DNA from: Polaromonas sp. | GTDB taxonomy: Bacteria > Pseudomonadota > Gammaproteobacteria > Burkholderiales > Burkholderiaceae_C | DNA: 64,000 bases | Assembly (NCBI GenBank): GCA_013298945.1 | Contig: JAAFJR010000008.1 | Span: 17,293-81,292 of the forward strand | Direction: 5' to 3' | In this document: piece after piece, positions 8,684 through 53,543 of the stretch | Position numbering within the stretch: position 1 is the first letter of the stretch | How the letters are laid out: the number at the start of each line of letters is the position of its first letter | The notes under the pieces: generated by a model | What the model was told of the DNA's origin: nothing | Database searches by the model: none | Seen by the model: the letters and a program-made list of their open reading frames with translations, nothing else | Made by a program: the position numbers and the translations under genes

Positions 8684-8695
8684 GTGTATGCTTTT

Positions 8696-11154: not shown

Positions 11155-11217
11155 AATAGAATATAGTTTATTTGTGAGATTAGCATGCTATTTTTACAAT
11201 TAATATAATTTAGGTTG

Positions 11218-12417
11218 TTATTTTATTCGCAAAAAAGCAATGAAAACTTTATGCCATCTATCTCTACGTTCGAAGTCAGTGAATAAAATATCCCAAGCGA
11301 GTGCAAAAATGATTGCAAGAAAGAAGCCAATCAAAGCTCCAATGATGGCATTTACAAAAACTCGAGGCCCAGATTTCTTGGTCGGTGCTACAGCGGCATC
11401 CAGTATTGAAATCACTGAAAAATCTCTAGATTCATCTATTCTTGAAAGCGCCCTTGCCTTCGTTAGCTGCTCTAAAACATTGTTATTTATTTCTTCCTCA
11501 CGCCGTAATGGTTCAACTTTTGCACGCAATTCAGCATACGACTGAAATGGTACAAAAATTTCATCATTAACCTTGTTTAAAGTGTCTGAAATATCTGTAG
11601 TATTCCGCCTCGAACGCGTACCTGCTATTGAAGCAAGCTGTGACTTTAATGCAGCCAATTCGGTTTGCATTCTTACCACTTCTGGATGGTTGTTAGTGGC
11701 AACGACAGCCATTTTTTGAAGCTCAACTTGCCGAGTTGCAATCATGCCACGTAACTCTACGACCACAGCAGAAGAGGCTTCTTCTTGTCCTTTAAGTCGA
11801 GTTAGACCAGTTAAACGCTCCATCTCAAGTAGTGCCTTACTTGAGTTATCTAGCTTTTTTCGTGCTTCTATAATTAAGCCATCATAGAACTCTAGACGTC
11901 GCTCAGATTCTGCTCTCGCAAGTTTTCTGGCAATTGTATACATGGCATTAATCATTCCGTTTGCAATATCTGCAGCGGAATCTCCCTTTTTGTCTGTGTA
12001 GGCTAGTGTGATAATGCCATCACGCCCTACTTCAACTTTAGTTCTTTTCCCGACTAAAACTCGCAGATCATCGATGTCATCTACTCCATAATGCTTACTT
12101 AAATTAAATTGTTTAATCACATCATCTTGAACGGAACGACTAAAAAATAAACTAGCATATAAATCTGACGGATTCTTGAGGGTTAATGCAGATGCACCAA
12201 GAACAGCTGTTCCACCTATTTGATTCAACAAAGAAGATGCTGTGGCCGTATTAGTCTGGGGGGGTAGCATACGAGCATAAGCTGTAAAAACAGGCAATGA
12301 TAGATAGGAATTAACTCCAACAGCTGCTCCGACAATAAGAGGCAGCAATATTAATAACCATCTATATTTAGACAGCCGAAGCATCAACCCAGAAACACCT
12401 ACATTTGGTACGCTCAT
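11218..12417 (-). CDS. polysaccharide chain-length determinant (Wzz/GumC-type PCP) without a kinase domain
   Basis: TM helix, then a long coiled-coil periplasmic region, then a C-terminal TM helix. I prefer the start MSVPNVG at 12417 because it forms an ATGA overlap with the upstream stop. Confidence 0.7.
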   Translation of the reverse strand: MSVPNVGVSGLMLRLSKYRWLLILLPLIVGAAVGVNSYLSLPVFTAYARMLPPQTNTATASSLLNQIGGTAVLGASALTLKNPSDLYASLFFSRSVQDDVIKQFNLSKHYGVDDIDDLRVLVGKRTKVEVGRDGIITLAYTDKKGDSAADIANGMINAMYTIARKLARAESERRLEFYDGLIIEARKKLDNSSKALLEMERLTGLTRLKGQEEASSAVVVELRGMIATRQVELQKMAVVATNNHPEVVRMQTELAALKSQLASIAGTRSRRNTTDISDTLNKVNDEIFVPFQSYAELRAKVEPLRREEEINNNVLEQLTKARALSRIDESRDFSVISILDAAVAPTKKSGPRVFVNAIIGALIGFFLAIIFALAWDILFTDFERRDRWHKVFIAFLRIK

Positions 12418-14792
12418 AAGCTTGATCGCAGTATCTTTATTGCCGCGCCGCCTAAACCCAATTGATAAAAAATCTGACTCCAATCACGGAAAATTCTTGT
12501 CCAGCTTGTAGACTGTACATCTTCGGGCACAACAATGGTATCCCCAGGATTAATTTCAAGTGATCCACCACTCATCCAGCCACCTTGTTGCCGTACCGTT
12601 CCGTCTGCACGATAAACTACTAACCCTGAGCGATCTGCGTGTTGTCGCAATCCACCTGAATTATCAATATAATTTTGACTTGTCCAAGCTGAATTCCAAA
12701 GAAGACTACCCTGCCTGAATACTGAACCTACTACAGTTACAGTTGCTGGCTTTGTGGGGATAAAAATAGAATCAAGATCTTCTAGCGCTACTGAAGGTAT
12801 ATCCTTATACTGCGCTGTTGAACCTAACAAATTCAAAGGTATTCTGCCTTCAGGTTGAATATTTCTCAACCTGCCTATCAATGACTTAATCGATTCAATC
12901 TCACCAGTACTAACGACACCCTCTTCTTGCGTAGTTGCAGTTCTTGACCGGCTAGCTAGATATCGAAAATAATCCTGCTCTATACGATCGGTAATGTCCT
13001 TAAGTCGCAAGGCTTCATCTTTTTTTGCACTTTCTCTGCTAAAGATGGTACCGAACATATAAGCTTGATTTGTAATCCCACCTGCTCGAAGAATTACTTG
13101 ACTCAAAGTTTCACCTTGCCCTACAGAATAAATTCCTGGTGCTTTTACCTCACCCTCAACTTTGACTAGTTTTAATTTTTTTTCTTGTGGTTGTTTAAAA
13201 TCACTTTTTGAAAATATAACAATTGTGTCACCAGATATCAGCGTTAAGTCATTTTCCAAATCTTTTGCAAGAGCTTTTGCCAAATTAAAAGGGATGACAC
13301 TAGTTGATAATGAAACAGAATCAATTCTTTCAACGGCCGCATAATCCCACTCCATATCTGGAAAGTCTCTACGGAAATCTGTATCTCTTGAAAGCTCAGT
13401 TAAACTCATAAGATTCGAGCGTCCATTTTGCTGCATCCATGCGGCGGGCCGTATCAATCCATCTTTTGGACTCAAGACATCTGATATACGTAAACCTGAA
13501 GTCCAGGGTTGTCGTAGCGGCTGAGCAACATTTCCTCTAACCGTTATAAATTGCTCAAAACGGGGGGAAGGCGGCAATATCATAAGGATATCACCATCTT
13601 GTAATGTTTTGTCTGCCCCCAGTTGTCCTAAATTAATATTTTCTATCTGACGGCCGCCATCCTTAAGTCGCTCTAAGCGAACATTTGGTTTTTGTTGAGA
13701 TAAGCTCAATCCACCGGCAAATCCAATCACTTCGGATATTAGTGTTTTATCGCCTAAATGATAAATAGCTGGGCGCTTAACAGCTCCACCAATAGCTACG
13801 AAACCTTTAGCCGCAGGAATAAAAATAACATCACCTGGCAATAGCTGTGGGTCGCTCGTTTTATCACCCTCAATAATCAATTTATAAGCGTCTACAACTG
13901 CCACAATCTTACCCCCACGTCGCAACTCAATTTTTCTAAAATCGCCAGTAGGTAATGGACCTCCAGATGCTAATAATCCATGGAGTGCTGTTGCAGTAGA
14001 CTCGGTTGTATGAATACCTGGTTTTTTTGCAAATCCTGCAACATAAAACTGAATTTGCCTTAATGCGCCCAAAGTCACTGTCAATTCAAAATTTTTATAT
14101 TGCTTAGAAATTTGAGTATTAATCAGTGACTTAAGATCTGAAATTTTCTGACCAGCCACCATAATTTGGCCTATTTTTGGTAAGAATATTAAACCAGAAC
14201 GATCAACTTGTCCTTGAAAATCAATATCAATCTGCCCCCAAGCACGAATTAAAAGTTCATCACCAGGACCAACACGATAATCTGCAGGTATGGTCAAAGG
14301 ATCTAAAGCTGACTGCAATGATCTACCATCAAAAAGTTCAGCTCCAAAAATAGGCAACATAGAACCGAATGAACTCTGTACTAGATCGGGAAAATCATAT
14401 GGAAATTTCAATGCTGGTTGCATTGAGTTTACAACTGGAGCATCAGCTGCAGCAGTCCCACCATTGGTACCACCAACAAAATTAGTAGTTTTATTCTCTA
14501 CTTTTGTCTCAAGAGATGTAGACAACTGAAGCTGCATTGGACCCTGCTTGGTAGCAGGCCTATCTTTCAAGTCATATCCTACTCCGGACCCTGCTGGTTT
14601 TGAAAAAATGCGCGACGGCGAAAAAATTCTATTGTCTTTGGTTAAATCACCTGGTAATGGAGCCTGCAAAAGTTGCGATGCACTGCTTGTAGAGGGTTGA
14701 CTAGTATCGTTTTGTGCGATAACAAAACTTGAATAAAATACAAAAAAAACTAATGATATAGTTTGCAAAAATATTTTAAAAAAGCTTTTCAT
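12414..14792 (-). CDS. large outer-membrane polysaccharide export protein (Wza/KpsD-like with several SLBB-type modules)
   Basis: Signal peptide MKSFFKIFLQTISLVFFVFYSSFVIAQ. Poly_export-like YRVGPGDELLIRAWGQ, then repeated ...GDV/GDI...P motifs typical of SLBB domains. Confidence 0.75.
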   Translation of the reverse strand: MKSFFKIFLQTISLVFFVFYSSFVIAQNDTSQPSTSSASQLLQAPLPGDLTKDNRIFSPSRIFSKPAGSGVGYDLKDRPATKQGPMQLQLSTSLETKVENKTTNFVGGTNGGTAAADAPVVNSMQPALKFPYDFPDLVQSSFGSMLPIFGAELFDGRSLQSALDPLTIPADYRVGPGDELLIRAWGQIDIDFQGQVDRSGLIFLPKIGQIMVAGQKISDLKSLINTQISKQYKNFELTVTLGALRQIQFYVAGFAKKPGIHTTESTATALHGLLASGGPLPTGDFRKIELRRGGKIVAVVDAYKLIIEGDKTSDPQLLPGDVIFIPAAKGFVAIGGAVKRPAIYHLGDKTLISEVIGFAGGLSLSQQKPNVRLERLKDGGRQIENINLGQLGADKTLQDGDILMILPPSPRFEQFITVRGNVAQPLRQPWTSGLRISDVLSPKDGLIRPAAWMQQNGRSNLMSLTELSRDTDFRRDFPDMEWDYAAVERIDSVSLSTSVIPFNLAKALAKDLENDLTLISGDTIVIFSKSDFKQPQEKKLKLVKVEGEVKAPGIYSVGQGETLSQVILRAGGITNQAYMFGTIFSRESAKKDEALRLKDITDRIEQDYFRYLASRSRTATTQEEGVVSTGEIESIKSLIGRLRNIQPEGRIPLNLLGSTAQYKDIPSVALEDLDSIFIPTKPATVTVVGSVFRQGSLLWNSAWTSQNYIDNSGGLRQHADRSGLVVYRADGTVRQQGGWMSGGSLEINPGDTIVVPEDVQSTSWTRIFRDWSQIFYQLGLGGAAIKILRSSL

Positions 14793-14841
14793 GAATATAG
14801 CTTTTAACATATTAATTTTAAAGACTTTAATCATAATTTGT

Positions 14842-16251
14842 TTAATAAGCATTTTTACCAGTAATGACTAATTTAATTGTGCGCAATATGACATATATAT
14901 CTAGCATTGGCGTCCAATTTCTCAAATACTCTAAATCGTACTCCACTCGTTTCTCCATCTTATCAATGGTATCAGTTTCACCTCGAAACCCATGTATTTG
15001 AGCCCATCCAGTTAAACCCGGTTTAACTTTATGACGAAGCATATAGCCCTTAACAAGTCCTCTATATTGTCTGTTGTGTCCTGCAGCGTGTGGCCTGGGG
15101 CCCACGATGCTCATATCGCCCTTAAAAATATTTATCAATTGCGGTAATTCATCGATGGACGTTCGACGAATGAAAGCACCCACCTTTGTTACTCGCATGT
15201 CATTTTGAGTTGTTTGCACTACAGTTTCTCCATCACTTGAAGCATTGCTGGTTGCTTGCGTCATCGATCTGAATTTATAAATTTGAAAAGGTTGTGCGCC
15301 ATTACCCCATCTATTTTGCATAAAAAATACTGGACCTTTTGAATCAATTTTTATCCAAATTGCCACCAATATTAACAATGGCAAAAGCACTATTAAACCA
15401 ATAGAAGAACCTAAAATATCAAAAATACGTTTAATGACAGAATCAAACCCTTTGCCGGGTGAGTCAATAATCGTAAATACCGACATACTGCCAATGGGAG
15501 TCATAGCCTCCCTAATTGGGCGAAACAATAAAAAATCATGTAAGTAATGCACTGAACAAGTACTGTCTAGCAACTGCTCCAACACAAAACCGAATCTATA
15601 GCTTGCTTCAGTAGGTAAAGAAACTAATACATGGTCTACATTTTGATTCGTAATATAGTCTGCAATTGCATCTATGCGACATAGGATTTTAAAAGGAGTG
15701 TATTCGGGAATCCTATCATCTGTTCGATCTTCGAAAAAACCAAGAAAATCAACTGCTAAAAACCTTTGAGTTGAAAGGCTTTGAGCGAAAGCTACACTAG
15801 AACTGGTAACTGCAGCAATAGCGAGATTGATTGGCTTTCTTTTGAATATTTTCAATACTGAAATTTCAATAAAAATAATAGTTAATATTGAACTAAAAAT
15901 CCATAAAAATGAAGAAAAATAAATACACTGCTTCCATTTTTCACTCCAAGATCCATCAATTGCAAAAACAATATTTGCTAATAAATATATCAACAAAGAT
16001 TTACTAAGTAAATCACTAAAAACCGCAAATCGAAAACTTTTTATCTTAGTTAGCTTGTGAATATCGAAACGAACCCAAACCATCGACAGCGCTAAAACAA
16101 TTAATAATGGCCAAAGACCTTTGTCACTGCCATCAAACCAGCCATAAAACCATGCTAAACAAATAGAACAAAACGCAGGCACGACTAACTGGATAACGTA
16201 CCTAAAAGGATTACGTATCGCTAAAAAATCTGAACCAGAACCATATTGCAC
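14842..16251 (-). CDS. undecaprenyl-phosphate hexose-1-phosphate transferase (WbaP/WcaJ-type initiating enzyme)
   Basis: C-terminal bacterial sugar transferase domain: [20 protein letters not shown]...YKFRSM...[21 protein letters not shown]. Confidence 0.85.
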
Positions 16252-32160: not shown

Positions 32161-32973
32161 CTAACTGAGCAAGCCTTGGTTCTTTGCACTGCTAACTGCT
32201 TGAGCACGTGTGTGCACTTGCAATTTTCGGTAAATGTTCTTGATATGCGTGGTCACGGTTTGCGTGCTGATATTGATTCTCATGGCGATAGCACTGCTGG
32301 TGCAACCATCTGCCACCAACTCTAAAATTTCACGTTCTCTGTATGACAAAACACCATTACCAAGCATTGGAATGACTTGGTTGCGCGTGCTTTGGAAGTC
32401 AATGTGCGAGCCGTGGGTTAATTTTTTAACGAGCCGCCGCGCCAGGCTGGGCGATATAAAAGCGCCACCATTGGCAACTTGCAGTACAGCTTGCGCATAG
32501 TTGCCAAACCAAGAGTTTTTGACAATATAGCCATTTGCGCCCAAATCAAAAGCGGTGATCGCCTTTTCTTCATCATCCATCATTGACACTACAAGTGCCT
32601 CAGCAGCGGGTCGGTGCATGCGCATGTATTTCAACAGCTCAAAGCTCATGCCATCGCGCAGGTTCAAGTCTAAAAGCATTACATCGAAAGCATAGTTTGC
32701 TATCAAATTTCTACCTTCACGCATGTTACTTGCTGTCGCCACTAGCGTGGTGCGTGGGTCAGAACCCAACTCTTGACCAACGACTGTGCGCATGTGCGCA
32801 TCCTCTTCAATCAAGATCACGCGCAATGGCTGGTTAGCTTGACCCAACAAAAAGTCGGGCCACAAATTTGCAGGATTCGCAAAATATGCAAATTGACCTT
32901 GCGATGCTAGCTTGGATGCATTCGCTTCGTTTGCAGTATTTGTATTGCTAAATGTGGTTACTTGTTGATTCAT
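32161..32973 (-). CDS. NarL/FixJ-type response regulator (REC + LuxR HTH) with a ~50-aa N-terminal extension, in a CsgD-like position
   Basis: REC landmarks ILIEED, VMLLDLNLRDG and GANGYIVK. C-terminal LSYREREILELVADGCTSSAIAMRINISTQTVTTHIKNIYRKL. Divergent from the repeat-protein operon. Confidence 0.8.
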   Translation of the reverse strand: MNQQVTTFSNTNTANEANASKLASQGQFAYFANPANLWPDFLLGQANQPLRVILIEEDAHMRTVVGQELGSDPRTTLVATASNMREGRNLIANYAFDVMLLDLNLRDGMSFELLKYMRMHRPAAEALVVSMMDDEEKAITAFDLGANGYIVKNSWFGNYAQAVLQVANGGAFISPSLARRLVKKLTHGSHIDFQSTRNQVIPMLGNGVLSYREREILELVADGCTSSAIAMRINISTQTVTTHIKNIYRKLQVHTRAQAVSSAKNQGLLS

Positions 32974-33585: not shown

Positions 33586-34071
33586 ATGAAAAAACTTTCC
33601 GTATTAGCCTTGGCATTGTTCGCAGCATCAGCATTTGCAACAAGTGGTGGTGGTAGTGGTGGCGGCAGTGGGGGTCCTTCTGCTTCGACTGATGTTGTCA
33701 TCAGCGGTACATCAACTCAAAGCGCCACTCTCAACAGTGTGAATGTGTCTAACCGCGTTTCAGGCAACGACAACGTTGGTCAGCAAAACTTGGCATCAAA
33801 CGCTGGCGATATCGATATTCGTGGTCGTTCAACTCAAACTGTATCAGCACGTGGCGGCTCTATCACCAACACGGTGACAGGCACTGACAACGTCGCAAGC
33901 CAAAACTTGTCGTCAAACATTGGCCAAGTTTCTATCAGCGGAACGTCCACACAGACAACATCGACAACTTACGCTAACGTGAGCAACAACGTTAGCGGAC
34001 GTGACAACTCTGGCACTCAAAACATTGCATCTAACAACTCTTGCACAACTTGCGTTGGCGGACATCGTTAA
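33586..34071 (+). CDS. secreted repeat protein 1: candidate fibre/amyloid-like major subunit (3 x 39-aa Q/N/S/T repeats, Gly/Ser-rich N-terminus, CxxC tail)
   Basis: AGGGGA Shine-Dalgarno. Signal peptide MKKLSVLALALFAASAFA, then TSGGGSGGGSGGPS. Three 39-aa repeats I[SR]GxSTQ...N.V[ST]GxDN...QN[LI][AS]SNxG. Ends in SCTTCVGGHR. Confidence 0.75.
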   Translation: MKKLSVLALALFAASAFATSGGGSGGGSGGPSASTDVVISGTSTQSATLNSVNVSNRVSGNDNVGQQNLASNAGDIDIRGRSTQTVSARGGSITNTVTGTDNVASQNLSSNIGQVSISGTSTQTTSTTYANVSNNVSGRDNSGTQNIASNNSCTTCVGGHR

Positions 34072-34186: not shown

Positions 34187-34657
34187 GTGAAAACTACTTT
34201 GTCGCTTTGTCTGTCATTGGTATTGAGTATGGTTACGTCAAACTCGGGCGCCACAGGTTATGACCCAGTTTTAATTTCTGGCTCTTCCACACAAATTGCC
34301 TCCATCAACAATTCAACTATCAGCAATACCGTATTCGGCAACGACAGTACAGCGCAACAAAACTTAGCCAGTAATGCGGGGGGCGTTGTGATTACTGGAA
34401 ATTCACTCCAAATGGTTGCAGCGTATGGTAGCTTCGCTCGAAACGAGGTTATTGGCAGCGAAAGCATGGCCAGTCAGAATTTTTCATCCAATATGGGTGA
34501 TACACAAATCAGTGGCAGATCGATGCAAATCACATCTATGCAAGGGACTTACGCCTACAACAGTGCACAAGGTCATAGCACCTATGCCATACAAAATGTC
34601 GCATCTAACAATGCTTGTTTTAGTTGCCCATCGGGAAACTGCAACTTTAGACGTTGA
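34187..34657 (+). CDS. secreted repeat protein 2: paralogue of protein 1 (candidate minor/nucleator subunit)
   Basis: GTG start 7 nt after GGGAGA. Signal peptide, then the same 3 x 39-aa repeat register (ISGSSTQ...QNLASNAGGVV / ITGNSLQ...QNFSSNMGDTQ / ISGRSMQ...QNVASNNA). Tail is CFSCPSGNC. Confidence 0.7.
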   Translation: MKTTLSLCLSLVLSMVTSNSGATGYDPVLISGSSTQIASINNSTISNTVFGNDSTAQQNLASNAGGVVITGNSLQMVAAYGSFARNEVIGSESMASQNFSSNMGDTQISGRSMQITSMQGTYAYNSAQGHSTYAIQNVASNNACFSCPSGNCNFRR

Positions 34658-34711: not shown

Positions 34712-35137
34712 ATGAAAAACCATTCCAAAATCTCAGCTCTTTGCATCGCAATTTATTTGATCGCTTCTGCACCAGCTTTAGCGCAATTTGCCCCAGGCGA
34801 AGACCCCATCAATTTGACCAAAGTATCCAAAACTGAGCTGCGTCCTACTGCACCACAGCAAGTTTCTGGAAATCTTGACCCGCTTTTTGGTATGCAGGGT
34901 TGGCTGCGTGCTCGCGTAACTCGCTATGAAGCGCGGGCCTATTCTGACAATACGTCCGACAACCTTTTGACAGATAACGACGCCGTTACCACCGCTAGCG
35001 CCCAAGGCTTAAATAAAGTCTGTGTGCAAGAGGTTGGTAGCTCAACGACAAGCTCCACCGGCTTTGGAAAATACGGTCCAAAAGGCGGTGCACAAATCGT
35101 GGTTTTAAAAGGCGATTTGGTCAACATCTGCAAATAA
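34712..35137 (+). CDS. small secreted protein of unknown function (141 aa, two Cys)
   Basis: Signal peptide MKNHSKISALCIAIYLIASAPALA|Q. Shine-Dalgarno agaggtga. Positioned between the repeat proteins and the CsgG-like gene. Confidence 0.6.
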   Translation: MKNHSKISALCIAIYLIASAPALAQFAPGEDPINLTKVSKTELRPTAPQQVSGNLDPLFGMQGWLRARVTRYEARAYSDNTSDNLLTDNDAVTTASAQGLNKVCVQEVGSSTTSSTGFGKYGPKGGAQIVVLKGDLVNICK

Positions 35138-35176: not shown

Positions 35177-36820
35177 ATGAATACCAACATAACAACAAAA
35201 GCACCATCGGCGACTCATGAACGTCTGCATCTACCGGTTCTACTTGCTGTGCTGACATCGTTGGTCATCACAGGCTGCGCAGCTCCCATGGATGCTCGCA
35301 AAGATACCAAGTACCAATCGATGGCCTCAGTTGCAGACAGGCCTACATCGCGTCCAACACGATCGCTCTCTAGCATGTCTGCCTCGCTCATGTGTATGGA
35401 TCATATGTTTAGACAAGCTGATTTGCCTACAACGCTCATCACTTCTAAACAAATCCCTGACGTGACGGGCAAGATTGCTGTAGCGACTAAAGACATGATC
35501 GTTACATCACTCTCGCAAATGTCGCGCTTGTCAAATGCATTTCGATACATTGATTATGAAGTCGATATTTCACGTCAAGATACGGTCCAAAACATGACCG
35601 CTATCATGTTGAACAACAACCAAATGCAGCTACAAAAACCGGCACTGTATGTATCGGGTGCAGTTTCATTTGTGGATCAAAACATCATCAATAACCACTT
35701 TGATGCAGGCACATCTGCAACGCGCTTAGAGACTGGTTATAGCAACAACCGCAACGCCACGCTGATTGGGCTTGATCTACATATGGGCGATTTCAAGACG
35801 CGCACCATTATTCCTGGCCTAGATTCAGCTAACGAAGTTGTGATTGGCAATGCCAGCCAAGGCTTAGATTTGGCAGGAAAAATTGGCAGTTATGGCGTTC
35901 AATTCAATGTGGGGCGCGATTACACACAAGGTCCTGGCGCGGCGATTCGTACCTTGGTTGACTTAGCGATGATTGAGCTGATTGGAAAATGGTCACGCCT
36001 ACCCTATTGGCGTTGTTTGACTCTGGACCAAGCGCATCCTGAGCTGCAACGTCAGCTGCGTGACTGGTATGACGCTGGTAGCCCTGCCGCACACTCAAAA
36101 CTGGTGAAAACAGCACTTTCAGGCTTAGGCTATATGAAGATGTCGCAAATTTCTGAACCAGACAACACAGCAGCTTTCAAAACCATTTTGGGCAAATACC
36201 AAGCTGATTCGGGCATGGTGGTTACAGGTGTCATAGATTTTCCGACTTATGAGCGTGTGATGCGTAATTACTCAAAGCTTGATACAGACGGCAAGCTGGT
36301 ACCCGTGGATTGGACACCAAGTGGCGAATTGAAACTTGCTGACGTGCCACGCAGCATGGATTTGCAAATCAAAAACGTCCAACTTGACAAGACTACTTTT
36401 GAAGTAGGCGACCAAATCTTCTTATCGACCAGCGTATCGCGCGCTTCTCATGTGTATTGTTATTTGCAAGAAGCTACAGGCAATATGCTGCGTTTACTGC
36501 CGAATGCAACTAACACAGAGTCCTTGATGACGGCTGATGTATCGGTGCGGATTCCTGATTGGATCAACCCAAAACCAGGCTTCATTTTGGATGCTGCTGC
36601 GCCAGGCAACGAATATGTATTCTGTATTGCTACTGACGATGATGTTCTGCCAAAGTTGCCAGAAGCGATGCAGATAGCAGCATTCAAACCGATAGCAGGT
36701 ATGTCAAACAAAGCAGATGTGGTGAATGCGTTTACACAAGTAGCGGGCGAAGGTGGCTTGAGCCAAGCGACTGTGACTTGGAAAGTCACGCCCAAGACTG
36801 TCAAGCCAGCACAAAAATAA
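35177..36820 (+). CDS. lipoprotein with CsgG-like N-terminal domain + peptidoglycan-binding-like module + DUF4384-like C-terminal domain
   Basis: Lipobox LVITGC. Segments align by eye to E. coli CsgG as I recall it (QIPDVTGKIAVATKDMIVTSLSQ...; LYVSGAVSFVDQN...LIGLDLHM...; IRTLVDLAMIELIGKW). LSGLGYM...YQADSGMVVTGVIDFPTYERV resembles PG_binding_1. FEVGDQIFLSTSVSRASHVYCYLQEATGNMLRLLPN resembles DUF4384. Confidence 0.6.
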   Translation: MNTNITTKAPSATHERLHLPVLLAVLTSLVITGCAAPMDARKDTKYQSMASVADRPTSRPTRSLSSMSASLMCMDHMFRQADLPTTLITSKQIPDVTGKIAVATKDMIVTSLSQMSRLSNAFRYIDYEVDISRQDTVQNMTAIMLNNNQMQLQKPALYVSGAVSFVDQNIINNHFDAGTSATRLETGYSNNRNATLIGLDLHMGDFKTRTIIPGLDSANEVVIGNASQGLDLAGKIGSYGVQFNVGRDYTQGPGAAIRTLVDLAMIELIGKWSRLPYWRCLTLDQAHPELQRQLRDWYDAGSPAAHSKLVKTALSGLGYMKMSQISEPDNTAAFKTILGKYQADSGMVVTGVIDFPTYERVMRNYSKLDTDGKLVPVDWTPSGELKLADVPRSMDLQIKNVQLDKTTFEVGDQIFLSTSVSRASHVYCYLQEATGNMLRLLPNATNTESLMTADVSVRIPDWINPKPGFILDAAAPGNEYVFCIATDDDVLPKLPEAMQIAAFKPIAGMSNKADVVNAFTQVAGEGGLSQATVTWKVTPKTVKPAQK

Positions 36821-36842: not shown

Positions 36843-38027
36843 ATGAAACGCGATCTCTTGATTTTCGTTACAAATACGGTGTTAGCTTGTGCTGCGGCCA
36901 TGGCTTTGCTAACACCCAAATTTGCCTACAGCGTTCAAATTGACCCTTCGCCGAACGCTGTTAACGGTAATTTGAATGACAACCCGATTGAAGATCGCAT
37001 CACCCTTCCCCAAGTACCACAACAAAAACGAAGTTCTGTTCAACCTATCAAAAATCAAACGGCGCTGCAATCCGATATTGAAAATCTGAAAGCAACAGTA
37101 AATAAAGTCAACGGCGCTACATCTGCACGCCCCAATTCAGCCGCGCAGCTGCAACGACGACAAGCAGCTAATGCCGCTTGGGTTTTGGGTTTGCTATATG
37201 CAAATGGTGTTGGGGTTGATGTTGATTACAGCGAAGCACATTTACGATTTAAACAAGCACATCAACTTGGCGAACCCTTATCGACTGCTGGCTTAGCTTG
37301 GTGTGAGATTCAGGGTTGTGAGACTTGGCCATCTGCACATGCAGCCAGAATTTGGATTGCGCAACTTCGGTCCCCCAAACCTGCGCGAGCCATGTATTTG
37401 GATTGGTTGGTAGAGCAAACGTTTTCGCCACTGCAAGCAAACTCTGAAAAAAGTGCTGCGATTAACGACAAGCTAGCGCAGCAACGTCGACAACTTTTGT
37501 TAAATGCAGCCAAAATGCAGGATGTTCAAGCGTTGATAGAGCTTGGTTTTGATGCCGTAGCCAATGAGCGCTTGAAAGAGGCCTATAACTATTTTGCAAA
37601 TGCAGCACCCAATTCTGCTGTAGCAGCTCAAAACGCCAGTTTGATACAAACACGCCAAAACGAGCAACCCGTCAAATGCAATATTTCAGGTGGTGCCGAT
37701 TTGCAAGATACCGTGCTGCTGAGTTCTGCCCAAGCGTTGCACAGAGGCATCGGTTGCCCTGTGAACTATGCCGAAGCGATTCGACTGTATAACTTAGCTG
37801 CTAACAAAGGCAATATGTCTGCCAAGCGGATGTTGTCACTTATTTATTCAAAGCCAGATGCGAGCGGCAACCTCAACATTGCGTGGATGCAACAATTGGC
37901 AAATTTGAATACGGCCAATTTATCGCTCAGTATCGATGGCGCTAGTCTTGCGCCTATGCTGAAGCGAGAACCAACACCCTTGTTTGACCTGATACCGCAG
38001 AATTTGCGCATTTGGCATGGTCGTTAA
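36843..38027 (+). CDS. secreted Sel1/TPR-like repeat protein
   Basis: Signal peptide. Sel1-type units (AAWVLGLLYANGVGVDVDYSEAHLRFKQA; AQALHRGIGCPVNYAEAIRLYNLAANKGNMSAKRML). Confidence 0.7.
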   Translation: MKRDLLIFVTNTVLACAAAMALLTPKFAYSVQIDPSPNAVNGNLNDNPIEDRITLPQVPQQKRSSVQPIKNQTALQSDIENLKATVNKVNGATSARPNSAAQLQRRQAANAAWVLGLLYANGVGVDVDYSEAHLRFKQAHQLGEPLSTAGLAWCEIQGCETWPSAHAARIWIAQLRSPKPARAMYLDWLVEQTFSPLQANSEKSAAINDKLAQQRRQLLLNAAKMQDVQALIELGFDAVANERLKEAYNYFANAAPNSAVAAQNASLIQTRQNEQPVKCNISGGADLQDTVLLSSAQALHRGIGCPVNYAEAIRLYNLAANKGNMSAKRMLSLIYSKPDASGNLNIAWMQQLANLNTANLSLSIDGASLAPMLKREPTPLFDLIPQNLRIWHGR

Positions 38028-46150: not shown

Positions 46151-46240
46151 TGGCGGAGAAGGCGGGATTCGAACCCGCGGAAAGTTTTACCCTTCGCACG
46201 CTTTCCAGGCGTGTGACTTAAACCGCTCATCCACCTCTCC
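46151..46240 (-). tRNA. tRNA-Ser (anticodon GGA)
   Basis: The reverse complement GGAGAGGTGGATGAGCGGTTTAAGTCACACGCCTGGAAAGCGTGCGAAGGGTAAAACTTTCCGCGGGTTCGAATCCCGCCTTCTCCGCCA folds with a 7-bp acceptor stem, the anticodon loop CTGGAAA, a long variable arm, GGTTCGAATCC and an encoded CCA. Confidence 0.9.
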
Positions 46241-47671: not shown

Positions 47672-50536
47672 TTAACTACTTTCCACTGACAACAACTTAA
47701 CGCTAGTTGTACTCTTTGCGATGCTAGGGTTATCCCTAATCAAACGTTTTAATTCAGGCACGCATGAGCCGCAATTGGTGCCACACTTCAGGCTGGCTTG
47801 CAGTTCAGTCAGTCGCCTCTCGTCTGAGCCAAAACTTTTTGCGAGTTGTTCAGTAATCGCCTTATCCGTCACGTTGAAGCAAGTACACACCGCTTTTCCG
47901 CGCGACTGCACCGCGATGGGTGCTTTGCTACCCGGAACCAACAACATGCGGCCATAGCTTTGCGCCGGCAAGCTGTCTTGCAACAGCGTCTTGACCCAAG
48001 CTTCTGAGCGCGTATCACCTGCTAGCAAAAAGGCTTCTAATTCTGCGTATTCGCGGTTGCCTGTTAATTTGATGGTGCGGTGCTGACCTTTTTTCCTATC
48101 AGCATAGCGCATCACTTGAGTGCTACCTGCAGAAACACTCAATCCAAGGACACCTTCAATCTGCTTCAAAACGTCTTCCGTGGGTGCTTCATGCCCAGCA
48201 GCTCTGAACAGCAAACCGGTTCTCGCAACGCCTTTAAAGGCTTCACCATCACCAAAAGGCACACAGCTGGCAAACGGGAACAAGCGCATCAACGCCTTCA
48301 AAGCCTCCCGAGCTGCCAATGCTTGATCGCTAGGCAGCCAAGCCACCCCCAGCAAGGTCCAAGGCAACTCAGCTTTGAGAATTTTGACGGCGGCGTGCTT
48401 TAGCTCGGGCTGCTTGGATGTGGGGCAGAACGCTGAAGTTGTGATCGTATTGACACCCGCCAGCCTTTCCCCATTGCTTCCTAGTCCACTTAAAAACTCC
48501 TCCCCCCAGTGCATGGCGATAAAGGCTTGACTCATGCCCACTTCTTTGGAGGCCTGCACAGGCAACAATATCGAGCCGCGCTTGCTGGTCACATGCACCA
48601 AATCACCTTCGCTGATCAAGCGTCGGGTCATGTCTTGAATGTTCATCTGCACCGTTGGCTCGGCCACGTGGCCAAACAACTTGCCCAAGGTGCCGGTGCG
48701 GCTCATGCCATGCCACTGGTCGCGCAGGCGGCCGGTGGTCAATGAAAACGGAAAACGCGACTCGCGCGGTTCTGCCACCGGTTTGTAGACCGTGTTGACG
48801 AATTTCGCTTTGCAATCAGCGGTAGGAAACACATTGTTTTCGTACAAGCGCTCTTTACCTACAGATTCACCTTCCCGCATCGGCCACTGCAAAGGCGTCG
48901 CCTCTAAGAGCGCATAGCTCATGCCTGTGATGTCCAAGTCGCGTCCACGGGTAGACTCGCGGTGCTCCAGCCAGACAGACTCCGGTGTCGGGTAGTCAAA
49001 CAAAGTTTGTGGTGATTTTGAAGGCAGTAACTTTTCCAAGCGGCGTGAAAACTCAGCAGCTATCGACCAATCATGCTGAGTTTCACCCGGTGCGACCACG
49101 GCGGCGCGAACGCGGGAAATACGGCGCTCTGTATTCGTCACCGTGCCCTCTTTTTCGCCCCAAGTCGTTGCAGGCAACAAAATATCGGCATAAGCGCATG
49201 TCGAGGTCGTCGAAAACGCCTCTTGCACGATCACCAACTCTGCGCGCTCCAAAGCTTTACGCACGACCGCTTGGTCTGGCATGCTTTGCGCGGGGTTGGT
49301 ACAGACAATCCACAACACTTTGATTTGCCCATCCGCAGCAGCTTGAAACATTTCAACAGCAGTTTTACCCGTAGCGGACGGCACAGAAGGCACGTTCCAC
49401 AGCTTTTGAATCTCCTCGCGATGCTGCGGATTTGCCAAATCGCGGTGCCCGCTCATCAAATTGGCCATGCCGCCGACTTCGCGCCCGCCCATGGCATTTG
49501 GTTGACCGGTGAGTGACAAGGGACCAGCGCCCGGTTTGCCGATTTGCCTGCATGCCAAATGCATGTTGATCAACGCGGCGTTTTTGGCCGTACCGCTGCT
49601 GGATTGGTTCAGACCTTGACAATACAAGCTGAGCGTCGCTTTCTGAAGCAGCGGGTCGCTTGATGCTCCTGTCGCAAACATTTGTGCTGCTTTGTACAAA
49701 TCTTCTTTTTTAATGCCACAAATGTCAGCGGTCAGCTCCGGCGTGCAGTCGCGCACCGTCGCTTTGAGTGCATCAAAACCATCGGTGTGGGCGTTGATGA
49801 AGTCGTGGTTGATCCAGCCTTCCCACAGCATGATGTGCAGCATGCCGTTGAACAGCATCACATCGGTGCCGGGTTGGATGGGTAGAAACAAATCGGCCAG
49901 CTCGACTGTGTCTGTTCGGCGTGGGTCGGCCACGATGATTTTCATCGCTGGGTTGGCTTTCTTGGCGTCTTCAATGCGCCGAAACAAAATCGGGTGCGCA
50001 AACGCTGTGTTGCTGCCGACTATGAAGATGCAGCCTGCGTGGTTCACATCGTCATAGCAGGCAGGTGGCGCATCAGCACCCAATGTTTGCTTGTAGCCCG
50101 CCACCGCGCTGCTCATGCACAGGCGGGAATTGCTGTCGATATTGTTGGTGCCTATTAAACCTTTGGCGAGCTTGTTAAAGACGTAGTAGTCCTCAGTCAG
50201 CAGCTGCCCAGAGATGTAAAACCCAACTGCATCAGGGCCGTGGTCAGCAATCACTTGGGCAAACTTCTTCACGGTGCTGTCCAAAGCCGCATCCCAAGAG
50301 ATGCGTTGAGGAGCGGCTCCCCTACTTTCGCGTTGCATAGGATGCAACAAACGGGTTTGCTGCGTCACAGCAGCGGTGGCCGTCAAATGCAGGTTTGAGC
50401 CTTTGGAGCACAAACGCCCGAAATTAGCGGGGTGCAGCGGGTCTCCCCGCACACCAGTAATCTGATCACCACTTGATTCAATAATGACGCCGCAGCCTAC
50501 GCCGCAATAAGGGCACGTTGATTTGGTTTCTGTCAT
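47672..50536 (-). CDS. nasA: assimilatory nitrate reductase catalytic subunit with a C-terminal BFD-like [2Fe-2S] extension
   Basis: N-terminal CPYCGVGCG 4Fe-4S motif, molybdopterin oxidoreductase body, and C-terminal VCTCFNVT...CGTNCGSC. Confidence 0.9.
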   Translation of the reverse strand: MTETKSTCPYCGVGCGVIIESSGDQITGVRGDPLHPANFGRLCSKGSNLHLTATAAVTQQTRLLHPMQRESRGAAPQRISWDAALDSTVKKFAQVIADHGPDAVGFYISGQLLTEDYYVFNKLAKGLIGTNNIDSNSRLCMSSAVAGYKQTLGADAPPACYDDVNHAGCIFIVGSNTAFAHPILFRRIEDAKKANPAMKIIVADPRRTDTVELADLFLPIQPGTDVMLFNGMLHIMLWEGWINHDFINAHTDGFDALKATVRDCTPELTADICGIKKEDLYKAAQMFATGASSDPLLQKATLSLYCQGLNQSSSGTAKNAALINMHLACRQIGKPGAGPLSLTGQPNAMGGREVGGMANLMSGHRDLANPQHREEIQKLWNVPSVPSATGKTAVEMFQAAADGQIKVLWIVCTNPAQSMPDQAVVRKALERAELVIVQEAFSTTSTCAYADILLPATTWGEKEGTVTNTERRISRVRAAVVAPGETQHDWSIAAEFSRRLEKLLPSKSPQTLFDYPTPESVWLEHRESTRGRDLDITGMSYALLEATPLQWPMREGESVGKERLYENNVFPTADCKAKFVNTVYKPVAEPRESRFPFSLTTGRLRDQWHGMSRTGTLGKLFGHVAEPTVQMNIQDMTRRLISEGDLVHVTSKRGSILLPVQASKEVGMSQAFIAMHWGEEFLSGLGSNGERLAGVNTITTSAFCPTSKQPELKHAAVKILKAELPWTLLGVAWLPSDQALAAREALKALMRLFPFASCVPFGDGEAFKGVARTGLLFRAAGHEAPTEDVLKQIEGVLGLSVSAGSTQVMRYADRKKGQHRTIKLTGNREYAELEAFLLAGDTRSEAWVKTLLQDSLPAQSYGRMLLVPGSKAPIAVQSRGKAVCTCFNVTDKAITEQLAKSFGSDERRLTELQASLKCGTNCGSCVPELKRLIRDNPSIAKSTTSVKLLSVESS

Positions 50537-50919
50537 GCAGCTGCGGTTGCTTTTCTTGCTGGGCCCGCCACAGGCGCGGTTAGGTCTAATGCCAAAGTGT
50601 CCAGCTCAGGTTGGTTCAAATACACCACACCGTCAGTCACCTGTACGTGGAAAGCCTGCGTACAACCTTCATCCGGCTCTTTGGCGCAGCCTGTCGCCAA
50701 ACCAATTGTCCAGTTGTGCAACGGGCAGGCAACGCTGGTGCCAAAGACGATGCCTTGGCTCAAAGGCCCGCCTTTGTGTGGGCAACGGTCTAGCAAGGCA
50801 AACACCTGGTCTTGGTCGTTGCGAAACACTGCCACATCCATTCCCTTAGCGCGCTGAACGCGGCGTGAACCCAAAACTGGGATGTCCTGCACCAGGCAGA
50901 TTTTTTTCCATTCGTTCAT
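50533..50919 (-). CDS. nirD: nitrite reductase [NAD(P)H] small subunit (Rieske-like)
   Basis: CPHKGGPLSQGIV...VACPLHNW. Has an ATGA overlap with nasA. Confidence 0.9.
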   Translation of the reverse strand: MNEWKKICLVQDIPVLGSRRVQRAKGMDVAVFRNDQDQVFALLDRCPHKGGPLSQGIVFGTSVACPLHNWTIGLATGCAKEPDEGCTQAFHVQVTDGVVYLNQPELDTLALDLTAPVAGPARKATAAA

Positions 50920-50936
50920 GATGATCTTCTTTTTTT

Positions 50937-50984
50937 ACTATAGTTTTAATAGCTACTTAGGCAATAAATACGCCGGCTACAGCC
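50937..50984 (+). repeat. 48-bp dispersed repeat, copy H (intergenic, nirB-nirD spacer)
   Basis: actatagttttaatagctacttaggcaataaatacgccggctacagcc. TAG variant. Followed by an AT-rich extension with ttgcttatattt x2. Confidence 0.9.
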
Positions 50985-51038
50985 ATATTTACACCTATTT
51001 TTGCTTATATTTGCTTATATTTACCTATATTGATCGAT

Positions 51039-53486
51039 TTATGCCGCTGTGAGCTTAGCAAACTGGCGGGTATCAACTTCGGCTTCTTTGAAGTCAAACC
51101 AAGGATCAGGCTCGCCGTCTAAGGCAAATTGCAACCGCTCCCACAGGGCTTTGCGGCCTTCGTGGTCGTCCAAGATTTTTTTCTTCACATAGTCCAAGCC
51201 CACGCGGTTGACGTAATGAACGGTGCGCTCCAAATACCAGCCTTCTTGGCGGTACAGTTCGCAGAAAGCACCGGTGTATTCCAACACTTCAGCTGCGGTT
51301 TTGACCTTCACGAAAAAGTGCGCCACCTCGGTTTTGATACCGCCGTTACCGGCAATGTACATCTCCCAACCGCTGTCCACCCCAATCACACCCACATCTT
51401 TGATGCCCGCTTCAGCGCAGTTGCGTGGGCAGCCTGACACCGCAAACTTGACCTTGTGCGGTGCGTACATGCGCCACATCGCGCGCTCTAGGTCTTTACC
51501 CATTTGGGTGGAATCTTGCGTGCCCATACGGCACCATTCAGAACCGACGCAAGTTTTGACGGTACGCAAGGCTTTGGCGTAGGCATGGCCTGAAGGCATG
51601 CCGATGTCTTTCCAGACATTGACTAAGTCTTCTTTTTTCACGCCTAGCAAGTCGATACGCTGGCCGCCAGTGACTTTGACGGTTGGAATCTTGTACTTGT
51701 CCACCGCGTCCGCAATACGGCGCAGCTCGGACGACGTTGTCTCGCCACCCCACATGCGCGGAATGACCGAGTAGGTACCATCTTTTTGAATGTTGGCATG
51801 GCTACGCTCGTTGATGAAACGGCTTTGTGGATCATCCTTCGCTTCTTTCGGCCATGAGCTGGTGACGTAGTAGTTCACTGCTGGGCGGCAGGACGAACAA
51901 CCGTTAGGCGTTTTCCAATCCATGAACTTGTACACGCCATCAATCGTCAAAATCTTGTTTTTGACAATCGCTTCCCGCACCGCTTGGTGGCCGTGATCGG
52001 TACACGCACACATGGCTTTAAGCTTAGGTGTCGCGGAATAATCACCACCTGCGGTGAACATCAAAATCTGCTCAACCAAACCGGTGCAAGAGCCGCAAGA
52101 CGCGCTAGCTTTGGTGTGCTTTTTCACCTCATCCAGCGTGAACAAACCTTTTTCTTTGATGGCTTTGCAAATCGTGCCTTTGGTCACACCATTGCAGCCA
52201 CAGACTTCGGCTTCATCGGGCATGGTTGCCGCTTTGCTGTGGCCTTCGTGACCCACGTCGCCGATATTGGATTCGCCAAACATCAGTTTGTCGCGAATGT
52301 CTGCAATGCTTCGACCATCACGCAGGAGTTTGAAGTAGTAACTGCCGTCCACGGTGTCGCCATACAGGCAAGCGCCAATCAGTTTGTCGTCTTTGATCAC
52401 CAGTTTTTTGTAAACGCCACCAAACGGGTCGCTCATAATGAGTTCTTCAGTGCCCTCGCCACCCTGGAATTCACCCGCGCTGAACAAGTCGATGCCCGTG
52501 ACTTTGAGCTTGGTTGAAGTGAGTGAACCGGTGTATCGGCCAATGCCGTGCTCGGCCAAATGATTGGCCGCAACTTTGGCTTGCTCAAAAAGAGGAGCAA
52601 CCAAGCCATAAGCAATGCCTCGATGGGCTGCGCATTCACCCACGGAGTAAATACGCGCATCGGTCACGGTTTGCAGCGTATCGGTCACGACAATGCCACG
52701 GTTGCAATGCAATCCAATCTTCTCGGCCAATTCCGTATTTGGGCGAATACCCACAGCCATCACCACCAAATCGGTAGGAATCTCGGTGCCGTCTTTGAAC
52801 TGCAATGCCATGACTCGTCCCGCTTTGCCACCATCTTTGTCTCCAATCAAAGCTTGCGTCTGGCCGCCCATGACAAACTTCAAACCACGCTCTTCCAACG
52901 ATTTTTGCAGCAAACCACCGGCGACAGAATCCAACTGACGCTCCATCAAGGTAGGCATCACGTGGATAACCGTCACTTGCATGCCGCGCAGCATCAAGCC
53001 GTTCGCGGCCTCCAAGCCCAATAAACCGCCACCGACGACGACAGCTTTTTTATACTTGGTCGACGCCTCAATCATGAGATTGGTGTCCGCAATATCGCGG
53101 TAGGCAATCACGCCTTCTAAATCTTTACCCGGAATCGGCAGCATGAAGGCGTTGGAGCCGGTGCACATCAGCAAACGGTCGTATTCAACTTCCAAGCCAT
53201 CATCCGCCGTCACGATACGGCGGGCGCGGTCAATGTTGACGACTTTTTTACCCGCGTGCAAAGTGATGTTGTTTTCGGTGTACCACTCCCAGCTGTTCAA
53301 AACGATTTCGTCCAACGTTTGCTCACCGGCCAACACAGGGCTAAGCAAAATGCGGTTGTAATTAGGTTGTGGTTCAGCACCAAAAATGGTGATGTCATAC
53401 AAATCTGGTGCAATTTTCAGAAGCTCTTCGACGGTGCGAACCCCCGCCATACCATTGCCAACCATCACTAATTTCAATTTTTTCAT
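51039..53486 (-). CDS. nirB: nitrite reductase [NAD(P)H] large subunit
   Basis: MKKLKLVMVGNGMAG FAD fold, BFD-like and sirohaem/4Fe-4S domains. The longer ORF start at 53528 lies inside the sigma-54 promoter. Confidence 0.9.
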   Translation of the reverse strand: MKKLKLVMVGNGMAGVRTVEELLKIAPDLYDITIFGAEPQPNYNRILLSPVLAGEQTLDEIVLNSWEWYTENNITLHAGKKVVNIDRARRIVTADDGLEVEYDRLLMCTGSNAFMLPIPGKDLEGVIAYRDIADTNLMIEASTKYKKAVVVGGGLLGLEAANGLMLRGMQVTVIHVMPTLMERQLDSVAGGLLQKSLEERGLKFVMGGQTQALIGDKDGGKAGRVMALQFKDGTEIPTDLVVMAVGIRPNTELAEKIGLHCNRGIVVTDTLQTVTDARIYSVGECAAHRGIAYGLVAPLFEQAKVAANHLAEHGIGRYTGSLTSTKLKVTGIDLFSAGEFQGGEGTEELIMSDPFGGVYKKLVIKDDKLIGACLYGDTVDGSYYFKLLRDGRSIADIRDKLMFGESNIGDVGHEGHSKAATMPDEAEVCGCNGVTKGTICKAIKEKGLFTLDEVKKHTKASASCGSCTGLVEQILMFTAGGDYSATPKLKAMCACTDHGHQAVREAIVKNKILTIDGVYKFMDWKTPNGCSSCRPAVNYYVTSSWPKEAKDDPQSRFINERSHANIQKDGTYSVIPRMWGGETTSSELRRIADAVDKYKIPTVKVTGGQRIDLLGVKKEDLVNVWKDIGMPSGHAYAKALRTVKTCVGSEWCRMGTQDSTQMGKDLERAMWRMYAPHKVKFAVSGCPRNCAEAGIKDVGVIGVDSGWEMYIAGNGGIKTEVAHFFVKVKTAAEVLEYTGAFCELYRQEGWYLERTVHYVNRVGLDYVKKKILDDHEGRKALWERLQFALDGEPDPWFDFKEAEVDTRQFAKLTAA

Positions 53487-53527
53487 CGTTTTCCTATGTC
53501 CATAATTGCTGCGTTGCACCATAAACA

Positions 53528-53543
53528 TGCAAACCTCGTGCCA
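53528..53543 (-). promoter_or_regulatory. sigma-54 (-24/-12) promoter for nirB-nirD-nasA
   Basis: The minus strand reads TGGCACGAGGTTTGCA, matching TGGCACG-N4-TTGCW exactly, about 40 nt upstream of the nirB ATG. Confidence 0.75.

Follow-up and report, generated by a model that had tools for sequence, protein, structure and literature searches.

The window analysed here is a stretch of 64,000 nucleotides from a Polaromonas sp. genome (assembly GCA_013298945.1, contig JAAFJR010000008.1, positions 17,293 to 81,292), and the gene under study, at 35177..36820 on the + strand, encodes a lipoprotein that resembles CsgG, the secretion pore of curli. The open reading frame begins with ATG and is translated into 547 amino acids (aa) before the stop codon. 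The protein consists of a lipoprotein signal followed by three modules, all read on the + strand. The signal peptide and the lipobox LVITG-C34 (35177..35278) were read off the translation. The CsgG/HfaB-superfamily domain covers aa 35-300 (35279..36076) and was recognized by the NCBIfam model HfaB, by hhalign, by AlphaFold2 (AF2) modelling and by Foldseek. A PG_binding_1-like three-helix module, degenerate in the clade of the window protein, follows at aa 303-365 (36083..36271), as indicated by PF01471, the homologues and a structural model. Finally, a DUF4384 beta-sandwich (PF14326) is found at aa 407-487 (36395..36637), after which a conserved C-terminal alpha/beta extension continues to ~aa 540. 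The gene shares a tight neighbourhood with genes for two secreted repeat proteins, a small two-cysteine protein and a Sel1-repeat protein. On balance, its product is best regarded as a member of the CsgG/HfaB channel superfamily, a lipoprotein of the outer membrane.

The CsgG/HfaB-type domain

The N-terminus of the lipoprotein reads MNTNITTKAPSATHERLHLPVLLAVLTSLVITG-C34-AAP, as is typical of a lipoprotein signal, and position +2 is Ala. The residues G33 and C34 are invariant in 27 close homologues, and Cys34 is kept in at least 90% of the sequences of a family alignment of 90 relatives of the window lipoprotein (alignment A3). In the hhalign comparison of the family profile with Escherichia coli CsgG, Cys34 pairs with the lipobox cysteine of CsgG. 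The lipobox had been claimed in the original prediction, made from the sequence alone, and all the peptide strings quoted there are found in the translation.

The relation of the N-terminal half to CsgG escapes most direct searches. Neither the window protein nor any of the 27 close homologues matches the Pfam CsgG family (PF03783) at E<=1, and the Pfam scan of the window lipoprotein matched DUF4384 alone. A phmmer search of the window protein against all PDB chains gave no CsgG match, and neither did a profile of the 27 close homologues searched against the PDB, which is too shallow because all its members share more than 57% identity. The sole curated match for the N-terminal half is the NCBIfam family HfaB (NF037935; E=1.2e-6, 27.9 bits), which spans aa 29-270 and corresponds to model positions 3-258 of 264; the equivalog cut-off of 300 bits is not reached. 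Since the Pfam CsgG model misses the window protein, the relation to CsgG is remote, but real.

A search with aa 34-300 across 1.84 billion cluster representatives retrieved relatives in 653 clusters at E<=1e-3 and in 124 at E<=1e-30, with lengths mostly of 500-570 aa. The window fragment was aligned with 128 diverse representatives (alignment A2), and the resulting profile matches the solved CsgG chains 3x2r/4q79 in the PDB with E=1.3e-3. Among the 90 diverse relatives, HfaB is matched by 66 (best E=1.3e-10) and PF03783 by 13 at E<=0.01 (best 5.9e-8). The comparison of A2 with E. coli CsgG by hhalign gave a probability of 94.3% and E=1e-7 over 242 columns, extending from the lipobox cysteine to the helix alpha-C, with an identity to CsgG of ~15-17%. 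When the family profile is aligned with CsgG, the motif pairs IPDVTGK/IQDETGQ, MIVTSLSQ/MLVTALKDS and FRYIDYE/FIPLER share columns, as do LYVSGAVSFVDQN/IMVEGSIIGYESN and IRTLVDLAMIELIGKW/VMLCLMSAIETGVIFLI. The five pairs of the CsgG-like succession proposed originally thus align as claimed. The E. coli CsgG strings quoted in the original prediction are also correct (the 277-aa CsgG sequence is that of PDB 3x2r, residues 1-277), and CsgG, with its 277 aa, contains neither of the two C-terminal modules, as had been stated.

The AF2 model of aa 34-300, with A2 as input, has a mean predicted local distance difference test score (pLDDT) of 88.6 and a predicted template modelling score (pTM) of 0.82. 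Its elements are arranged in the order helix, strand, helix, strand, helix, four long strands, long helix and terminal helix, and the four long strands (24, 22, 27 and 12 residues) make two hairpins. In the Foldseek comparison with the PDB the top 25 matches are CsgG throughout, the best being 6l7a_A (E=3.1e-13, probability 1.0), and the next fold is that of the gasdermin pores, first encountered at E=5e-4. The model reaches template modelling scores (TM-scores) of 0.46-0.68 with membrane-inserted CsgG (0.46-0.58 for 6l7a and 4uv3), compared with 0.32-0.45 for the soluble pre-pore 4uv2. In view of the profile-profile comparison and the predicted fold, the N-terminal half is assigned as a CsgG/HfaB-superfamily domain, and that it adopts a CsgG-type fold is almost certain. 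The CsgG-like nature proposed for this half is therefore borne out by the hhalign and Foldseek results. The outcome of the hidden Markov model (HMM) searches was divided: the Pfam CsgG model came close to overturning the proposal, whereas the HfaB match, the 13 relatives recognized by PF03783, hhalign and the structure sustained it. Of HfaB and curli CsgG, the former is the closer to the domain in sequence, and the domain is an orthologue of neither.

Within the domain, the most marked departure from CsgG is the missing constriction loop. Residues Y51, N55 and F56 of CsgG are reported (Goyal et al. 2014) to form the pore constriction, and they belong to the CsgG loop FKPYPASNFSTAVPQ, placed between IQDETGQ and SATAM (mature numbering). 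The corresponding region of the window protein is ~11-12 residues shorter than in CsgG. The hhalign alignment has a gap of 12 columns, opposite which FKPYPASNFSTA is placed, and the spacing between IPDVTGK and TKDM is four residues (IAVA) against 15 in CsgG. The family of the window lipoprotein has also features of its own, namely a conserved segment RPxRxxSxFSxSLxCMD that precedes helix 1 and the invariant cysteines Cys73 and Cys280, which would form a periplasmic disulfide. The hairpin tips (~aa 175-189 and 228-247) display, across 129 sequences, an alternation of hydrophobic and small or polar residues flanking short polar turns. This alternating pattern is what barrel-forming hairpins need and, for that reason, the transmembrane hairpins look intact. 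The model predicts two amphipathic, extendable transmembrane beta-hairpins of the CsgG type.

Two fused C-terminal modules

The first of the additional modules is degenerate in the window protein itself. PG_binding_1 (PF01471) is matched at aa 309-359, over model positions 7-55 of 57, with 16.3 bits and E=0.011. No Pfam family scores higher on the isolated segment, yet the match falls below the 23-bit cut-off. The PG_binding_1-like module of the original prediction is therefore sub-threshold in the window protein, but the aligned segment matches PF01471 significantly in 26 of the 27 close homologues (best 4.8e-8). Among the diverse relatives PF01471 is matched by 59/90 (best 2.1e-14) and PG_binding_2 by a further 17/90, and the family profile matches the solved peptidoglycan-binding domains 8da2, 4c2g and 4fet with E values from 3.8e-5 to 3.5e-4. 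The helices of the module lie at aa 303-316, 332-345 and 355-363 in a full-length model. This model was built from the shallow 27-homologue alignment, has a pLDDT of ~24 in the N-terminal half and was used for the C-terminal modules only. In the Comamonadaceae clade to which the window protein belongs, PDN..F stands where DG.FG would be canonical and, given this replacement, peptidoglycan binding by the window lipoprotein is no more than plausible.

The second module is well defined. DUF4384 is matched at aa 407-487 with E=2.4e-13 and 50.4 bits, above the cut-off of 27 (model positions 1-79 of 81), and the score is 53.2 bits on the isolated C-terminal part; the DUF4384-like module originally suggested is thereby established. 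In the full-length model this region forms beta strands with pLDDT values of 70-90 over most of its length, and its Foldseek matches are generic (carbohydrate-binding modules, GbpA, macroglobulin and Ig domains, E ~7e-4). The linker that precedes DUF4384 varies by ~40 residues in length among homologues.

The survey of domain architectures that had been proposed as a check was carried out with family-derived HMMs on the 128 representatives. All three modules are present in 98 of them, the CsgG-like and peptidoglycan-binding modules without DUF4384 in 26, and the CsgG-like domain alone in two; the peptidoglycan-binding module as such is found in 124/128. As 98/128 carry the three modules, the fusion is the rule in the family and no oddity of the window genome. 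One short member, of 307 aa (locus L087, 5001-6492), is probably a frameshifted full-length gene, with a DUF4384-like ELSVSVSTSIDAWIYCFYQQADGQIMKIFPNRF in another frame. Since at least this one looks like a frameshift artefact, the short forms were discounted as evidence for a stand-alone ancestor. In addition, the NCBIfam family TIGR03979 (His-Xaa-Ser repeat protein HxsA) is matched by 53/90 relatives (best 6e-9). These matches presumably run through the DUF4384 or the peptidoglycan-binding part and suggest a module shared with the Hxs system.

The operon and its distribution

The lipoprotein gene belongs to a series of five + strand genes spaced by 115, 54, 39 and 22 nt. The first gene (33586..34071) encodes secreted repeat protein 1, of 161 aa, with a signal peptide, a Gly/Ser linker, three repeats and a C-terminal CxxC. 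The second (34187..34657) has a GTG start and encodes secreted repeat protein 2, of 156 aa, a paralogue of the first (44% identity) that ends in C..C..C. The third (34712..35137) encodes a small secreted protein of 141 aa, in which two cysteines are conserved and the C-terminus bears the signature (I/V)VVL(K/R)GDLVN(I/V)C(K/R/N). The last gene of the operon (36843..38027), downstream of that for the lipoprotein, encodes a Sel1-repeat protein of 394 aa with an N-terminal signal-like segment; its Pfam Sel1 match (3.5e-6, 27.8 bits) is under the cut-off of 30.7. After it comes a convergent gene for L-serine dehydratase. Upstream, at 32161..32973 on the - strand, a divergent gene encodes a NarL/LuxR-type response regulator of 270 aa (Pfam GerE 2.7e-19, Response_reg 1.1e-14).

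The repeat proteins of the family consist of a signal peptide, often a Gly-rich linker, three 39-residue repeats rich in Q/N/S and a C-terminal CxxC. The repeat signature is S.Q-x10-N-x3-G-x4-A.QN..SN.G, with the Q/N/S/G positions invariant at a spacing of 39 in a 45-sequence alignment, and the three repeats match one another when sub-alignments are compared by hhalign (98-99%, E<=1e-14). A curlin-like substructure of half-repeats (~19-20 aa) was tested as well, and was rejected because no similarity exists between the halves of a repeat. Some database relatives are ~260 aa long and presumably carry more repeats. No Pfam or NCBIfam family covers the repeat proteins, and all their database homologues are named hypothetical. 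The same applies to the small two-cysteine protein, which belongs to no Pfam/NCBIfam family and for which the homology search gave hypothetical proteins only. Repeat protein 1 is a candidate substrate or fibre subunit, and the small protein a candidate accessory or nucleator component.

The conservation of this arrangement was followed in a locus scan with one genome per GTDB species, which yielded 187 loci encoding relatives; the neighbourhood counts refer to the best 80. These belong to Polaromonas (<=94% identity), Hydrogenophaga, Acidovorax, Simplicispira, Comamonas, Limnohabitans and other Comamonadaceae. The genes for the repeat protein, the small two-cysteine protein and the lipoprotein occur together in 75/80 species-level loci, and the remaining five are contigs that end just upstream. 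In the related loci the small-protein gene keeps its place directly before that of the lipoprotein. Two tandem repeat-protein paralogues are present in seven loci, including the closest Polaromonas relatives, and a single copy in 68. A Sel1 homologue is found in 74/80 loci, downstream of the lipoprotein gene wherever it was read, and a homologue of the LuxR-type regulator in 67/80, usually upstream and on the opposite strand. The operon is absent from the PLSDB plasmids.

The triad of repeat protein, small two-cysteine protein and CsgG-like lipoprotein recurs beside relatives with 28-38% identity, on contigs with a GC content of 36-66%. The loci L083, L084, L085 and L087 have each their own Q/N/G-rich repeat protein and a small protein ending in C...GDV(I)..C, and L092 has the small protein without a repeat protein. 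The small protein is encoded upstream of the distant relatives (27-38% identity) in all five. The Sel1 gene is absent beside the distant relatives. In L090 (981-5387) the gene for a member of 396 aa, with the CsgG-like and peptidoglycan-binding modules, comes third in what looks like an operon, after those for a cellulose-synthase-like glycosyltransferase of family GT2 and for a DUF3131 protein, and the gene boundaries overlap; judging from this operon, part of the family may be linked to polysaccharide.

Other genes were observed around the distant members. Proteins with an OmpA domain and stand-alone DUF4384 proteins flank them in L088 (2811-4794), L092 (2006-6585) and L087 (6720-6986), so that DUF4384, OmpA and CsgG-like genes pair repeatedly among the distant members. 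L092 also encodes a 1025-aa Tubulin_2 protein, and L088 an extracytoplasmic function (ECF) sigma factor. Upstream of the triad in L085 (237-986), a signal-peptide protein contains VLVKALKDAGQGRWFRV, which resembles the alpha2-beta2 motif of CsgG, MLVTALKDSRWFIPLE, and may be a second, non-lipobox CsgG-like paralogue. In two unrelated contigs, L083 (7690-8007) and L088 (6779-7168), the place directly downstream of the CsgG-like gene, which in the window belongs to the Sel1 gene, is taken by a gene for a small signal-peptide protein that bears the motif CWQxGxLxFEE...C.

Elsewhere in the window, a Wzx/Wzy-type exopolysaccharide cluster is located at 7382-16251 (- strand), ~17 kb from the CsgG-like operon, and includes an initiating sugar transferase, a Wza-like protein (Poly_export+SLBB), a Wzz/GNVR chain-length protein, a Polysacc_synt flippase and a GT1/GT4 glycosyltransferase. 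Genes in the region 47672-53528 (- strand) look like those for a NirB-type nitrite reductase and for an assimilatory nitrate reductase, the latter a molybdopterin oxidoreductase that includes a BFD-like domain. A tRNA-Ser(GGA) gene is located at 46151-46240.

A proposed self-anchored channel and the rival explanations

The lipoprotein and its operon are read here, with a confidence slightly above even, as a self-anchored CsgG/HfaB-type channel that exports the repeat proteins encoded beside it. Channel function of the lipoprotein is likely; the evidence tilts, less strongly, towards the repeat proteins as the cargo, and an amyloid-like nature of these proteins, proposed by analogy, is possible rather than expected. 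The operon probably marks an undescribed curli-like surface-fibre system.

In the proposed mechanism, the lipoprotein would be exported by Sec and lipidated at Cys34, after which aa 35-300 would oligomerise, into a nonamer if CsgG, with its 36-stranded outer-membrane barrel, is taken as guide. Two amphipathic beta-hairpins would then enter the outer membrane and give rise to a secretion pore devoid of the CsgG constriction loop. The PG_binding_1-type module comes right after alpha-C; it would be seated at the periplasmic edge of the ring and would attach the latter to the cell wall or set its position there. DUF4384, on its variable linker under the pore, could provide built-in substrate docking or capping and so replace the separate accessories CsgE and CsgF. 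The channel would export the one or two Q/N-rich proteins of 3x39-residue repeats, which would probably polymerise outside the cell as fibre or matrix subunits. The small two-cysteine protein, exported or acting as a partner, might serve as nucleator, anchor or plug, and the divergent LuxR-type response regulator would control the expression, in a role like that of CsgD. A more far-reaching version is less likely than not. In it, a hitherto unrecognised and widespread fibre system of type-VIII-like character would have a self-sufficient, constriction-free pore, held at the wall by nine peptidoglycan-binding modules and provided with a periplasmic cage of nine DUF4384 domains in place of CsgE/CsgF, and would secrete a new functional amyloid of 39-residue Q/N-rich repeats, nucleated or anchored by the small protein.

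Several observations weigh against the export of repeat proteins by such a channel. Oligomerisation, membrane insertion and transport by the lipoprotein are inferred. The Pfam CsgG model recognizes neither the window protein nor its close homologues, and the peptidoglycan-binding module is sub-threshold, with PDN..F instead of DG.FG, in the clade of the window protein. The neighbouring genes match none of the Pfam/NCBIfam curli families (CsgE, CsgF, curlin) at E<=1. A relation of the repeat proteins to curlin or Fap found no support, since the hhalign comparison with E. coli CsgA aligned the signal peptide only, and the repeat-protein profile gave noise against the PDB, with no chain at E<=0.1 (the presence of FapC in that set was unchecked). 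The amyloid label is an argument from analogy. The promoter and terminator scans yielded nothing above the shuffled-sequence expectation. Furthermore, the cargo may differ across the family, because some distant members sit in other contexts.

The main rival, in itself unlikely, is an HfaB-type anchoring of a polysaccharide adhesin, in which the lipoprotein would export and organise the two-cysteine protein and the repeat proteins as small anchors. In the manner of HfaA and HfaD with the Caulobacter holdfast, these would tether an exopolysaccharide adhesin to the cell surface, and no free-standing fibre would be formed. HfaB is the holdfast-anchor lipoprotein of Caulobacter, described as CsgG-like and required for the surface localisation of HfaA and HfaD (PMC6707917). 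The top curated family of the window protein is indeed HfaB and not curli CsgG, and the order of a small secreted protein followed by an HfaB-like lipoprotein mirrors hfaA-hfaB (PMC6707917). However, the HfaB score of 27.9 is far from the 300-bit cut-off, and the neighbours have no NCBIfam match at all, hence none to holdfast proteins. A link to polysaccharide is suggested by the distant member in an operon with the GT2 cellulose-synthase-like glycosyltransferase and DUF3131, by the requirement of an Acinetobacter baumannii CsgG/HfaB-family gene for the production of poly-N-acetylglucosamine (PNAG; bioRxiv 10.1101/2021.05.19.444899), by the weak fold matches of DUF4384 to carbohydrate-binding modules and by the Wzx/Wzy-type cluster ~17 kb away in the window. 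On the other hand, polysaccharide genes are neither in nor beside the conserved five-gene cluster, and the exopolysaccharide cluster (7.4-16.3 kb) is separated from the operon by unrelated genes, partly housekeeping ones.

A non-channel role is less likely than the adhesin anchor, because the hairpin pattern is conserved, and is altogether improbable. The lipoprotein would then be a periplasm-facing scaffold, similar to the CsgG pre-pore, that serves as a bridge between outer membrane and peptidoglycan or as a regulator of cell-wall enzymes, and the repeat proteins would leave by another route. The near universality of the peptidoglycan-binding module (124/128 representatives), the OmpA-domain proteins that frequently adjoin the distant members and the existence of a soluble pre-pore form of CsgG (PDB 4uv2) are in line with such a scaffold, and the loss of the constriction loop could mean that gated transport was lost. 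Nevertheless, the alternating hydrophobic hairpin tips are conserved, which is unexpected if they are packed on the core, and the model is nearer the membrane-inserted conformations. The steady linkage to signal-peptide repeat proteins, otherwise without an obvious route of export across the outer membrane, also argues against the scaffold. Chance or convergence, with the N-terminal half derived from an unrelated lipoprotein family, is scarcely credible: the Pfam CsgG search and the phmmer and close-homologue hmmsearch searches of the PDB were all empty and the identity to CsgG is only ~15-17%, but independent lines (the HfaB HMM, the 13 PF03783 relatives, the PDB match of the diverse profile, hhalign at 94% and Foldseek at E=3e-13) agree over the full domain with no competing fold.

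With the self-anchored channel as the preferred reading, the comparison with the known systems places the protein as a variant of the CsgG/HfaB channel family. The original prediction had proposed an architectural variant of the curli secretion pore; the variant stands at the level of the channel family and not as part of the curli system proper, because no homologues of curlin, CsgE or CsgF are present in the operon. In curli, the counterparts of the regulator and repeat-protein genes are csgD and csgBA. CsgG (PDB 4uv3, 4q79, 6l7a) shares with the window protein the lipobox and the fold order alpha1-beta1-alpha2-beta2, two hairpins, alpha3 and alpha-C, as well as a nearby LuxR-family regulator gene, usually divergent, and nearby genes for secreted repeat proteins. 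The window protein differs from CsgG by ~250 extra C-terminal residues (PG_binding_1 and DUF4384), by the absence of the constriction loop, by the additional conserved N-terminal segment and by the invariant Cys73/Cys280, and its operon differs from curli in lacking csgE/csgF and in candidate substrates that are not curlin repeats.

The Fap system of Pseudomonas, whose functional amyloid is FapB/FapC, exports through the FapF barrel and not through a CsgG-type lipoprotein, and the window operon has no analogues of fapA, fapD, fapE or fapF. The likeness lies in the substrates: FapB/FapC, as the window repeat proteins, are small and secreted, with three imperfect Q/N-rich repeats and sometimes two paralogues. 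The format of three imperfect repeats is that of CsgA and FapC (PMC12459412).

Among the curated families HfaB of Caulobacter crescentus scores best, its model being covered over nearly the whole length, and this lipoprotein is needed for the surface display of small multimer-forming proteins encoded alongside (PMC6707917; bioRxiv 10.1101/2022.07.20.500906). Its model, however, has 264 positions, without peptidoglycan-binding or DUF4384 modules, and the window protein scores ten-fold under the cut-off. Moreover, the neighbours are not recognisable as HfaA/HfaD (no NCBIfam match, the presence of HfaA/HfaD models in the library being unconfirmed), and the hosts of the window family are Comamonadaceae without a known holdfast. 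In the A. baumannii three-gene cluster, matrix-linked and widely distributed, a CsgG/HfaB protein is accompanied by two lipoproteins, and the cluster has an effect on PNAG and on Cup pili (bioRxiv 10.1101/2021.05.19.444899). Compared by description only, it resembles the window gene in encoding a CsgG-superfamily lipoprotein that is uncharacterised and not part of a curli operon, and differs in having no repeat-protein genes and no reported fusion to peptidoglycan-binding or DUF4384 modules.

In the full-text literature, no paper was found that links CsgG to a DUF4384 or peptidoglycan-binding fusion, and none on CsgG in Comamonadaceae genera. NanoporeDB lists thousands of CsgG-like proteins obtained by structure mining, with the three-module architecture undiscussed, and a Joint Genome Institute (JGI) annotation calls one relative 'CsgG'. 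The family is an uncharacterised and widespread branch of CsgG/HfaB, set apart by the fusion of its modules and by candidate substrates peculiar to it.

CsgG serves as the model of how proteins are secreted through the outer membrane in an energy-independent way, and commercial nanopore sequencing uses it as its pore. A large natural branch without the constriction loop and with the accessories in cis would test the need for the cage-and-gate provided by CsgE/CsgF, would show how a secretion pore is positioned relative to peptidoglycan and would supply new pore geometries for nanopore engineering. DUF4384 gains a first testable context, and so do two families of hypothetical secreted proteins. 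For the organisms themselves, the repeat proteins and the small proteins may form matrix fibres of the Comamonadaceae, a family abundant in the biofilms of fresh water, glaciers and wastewater.

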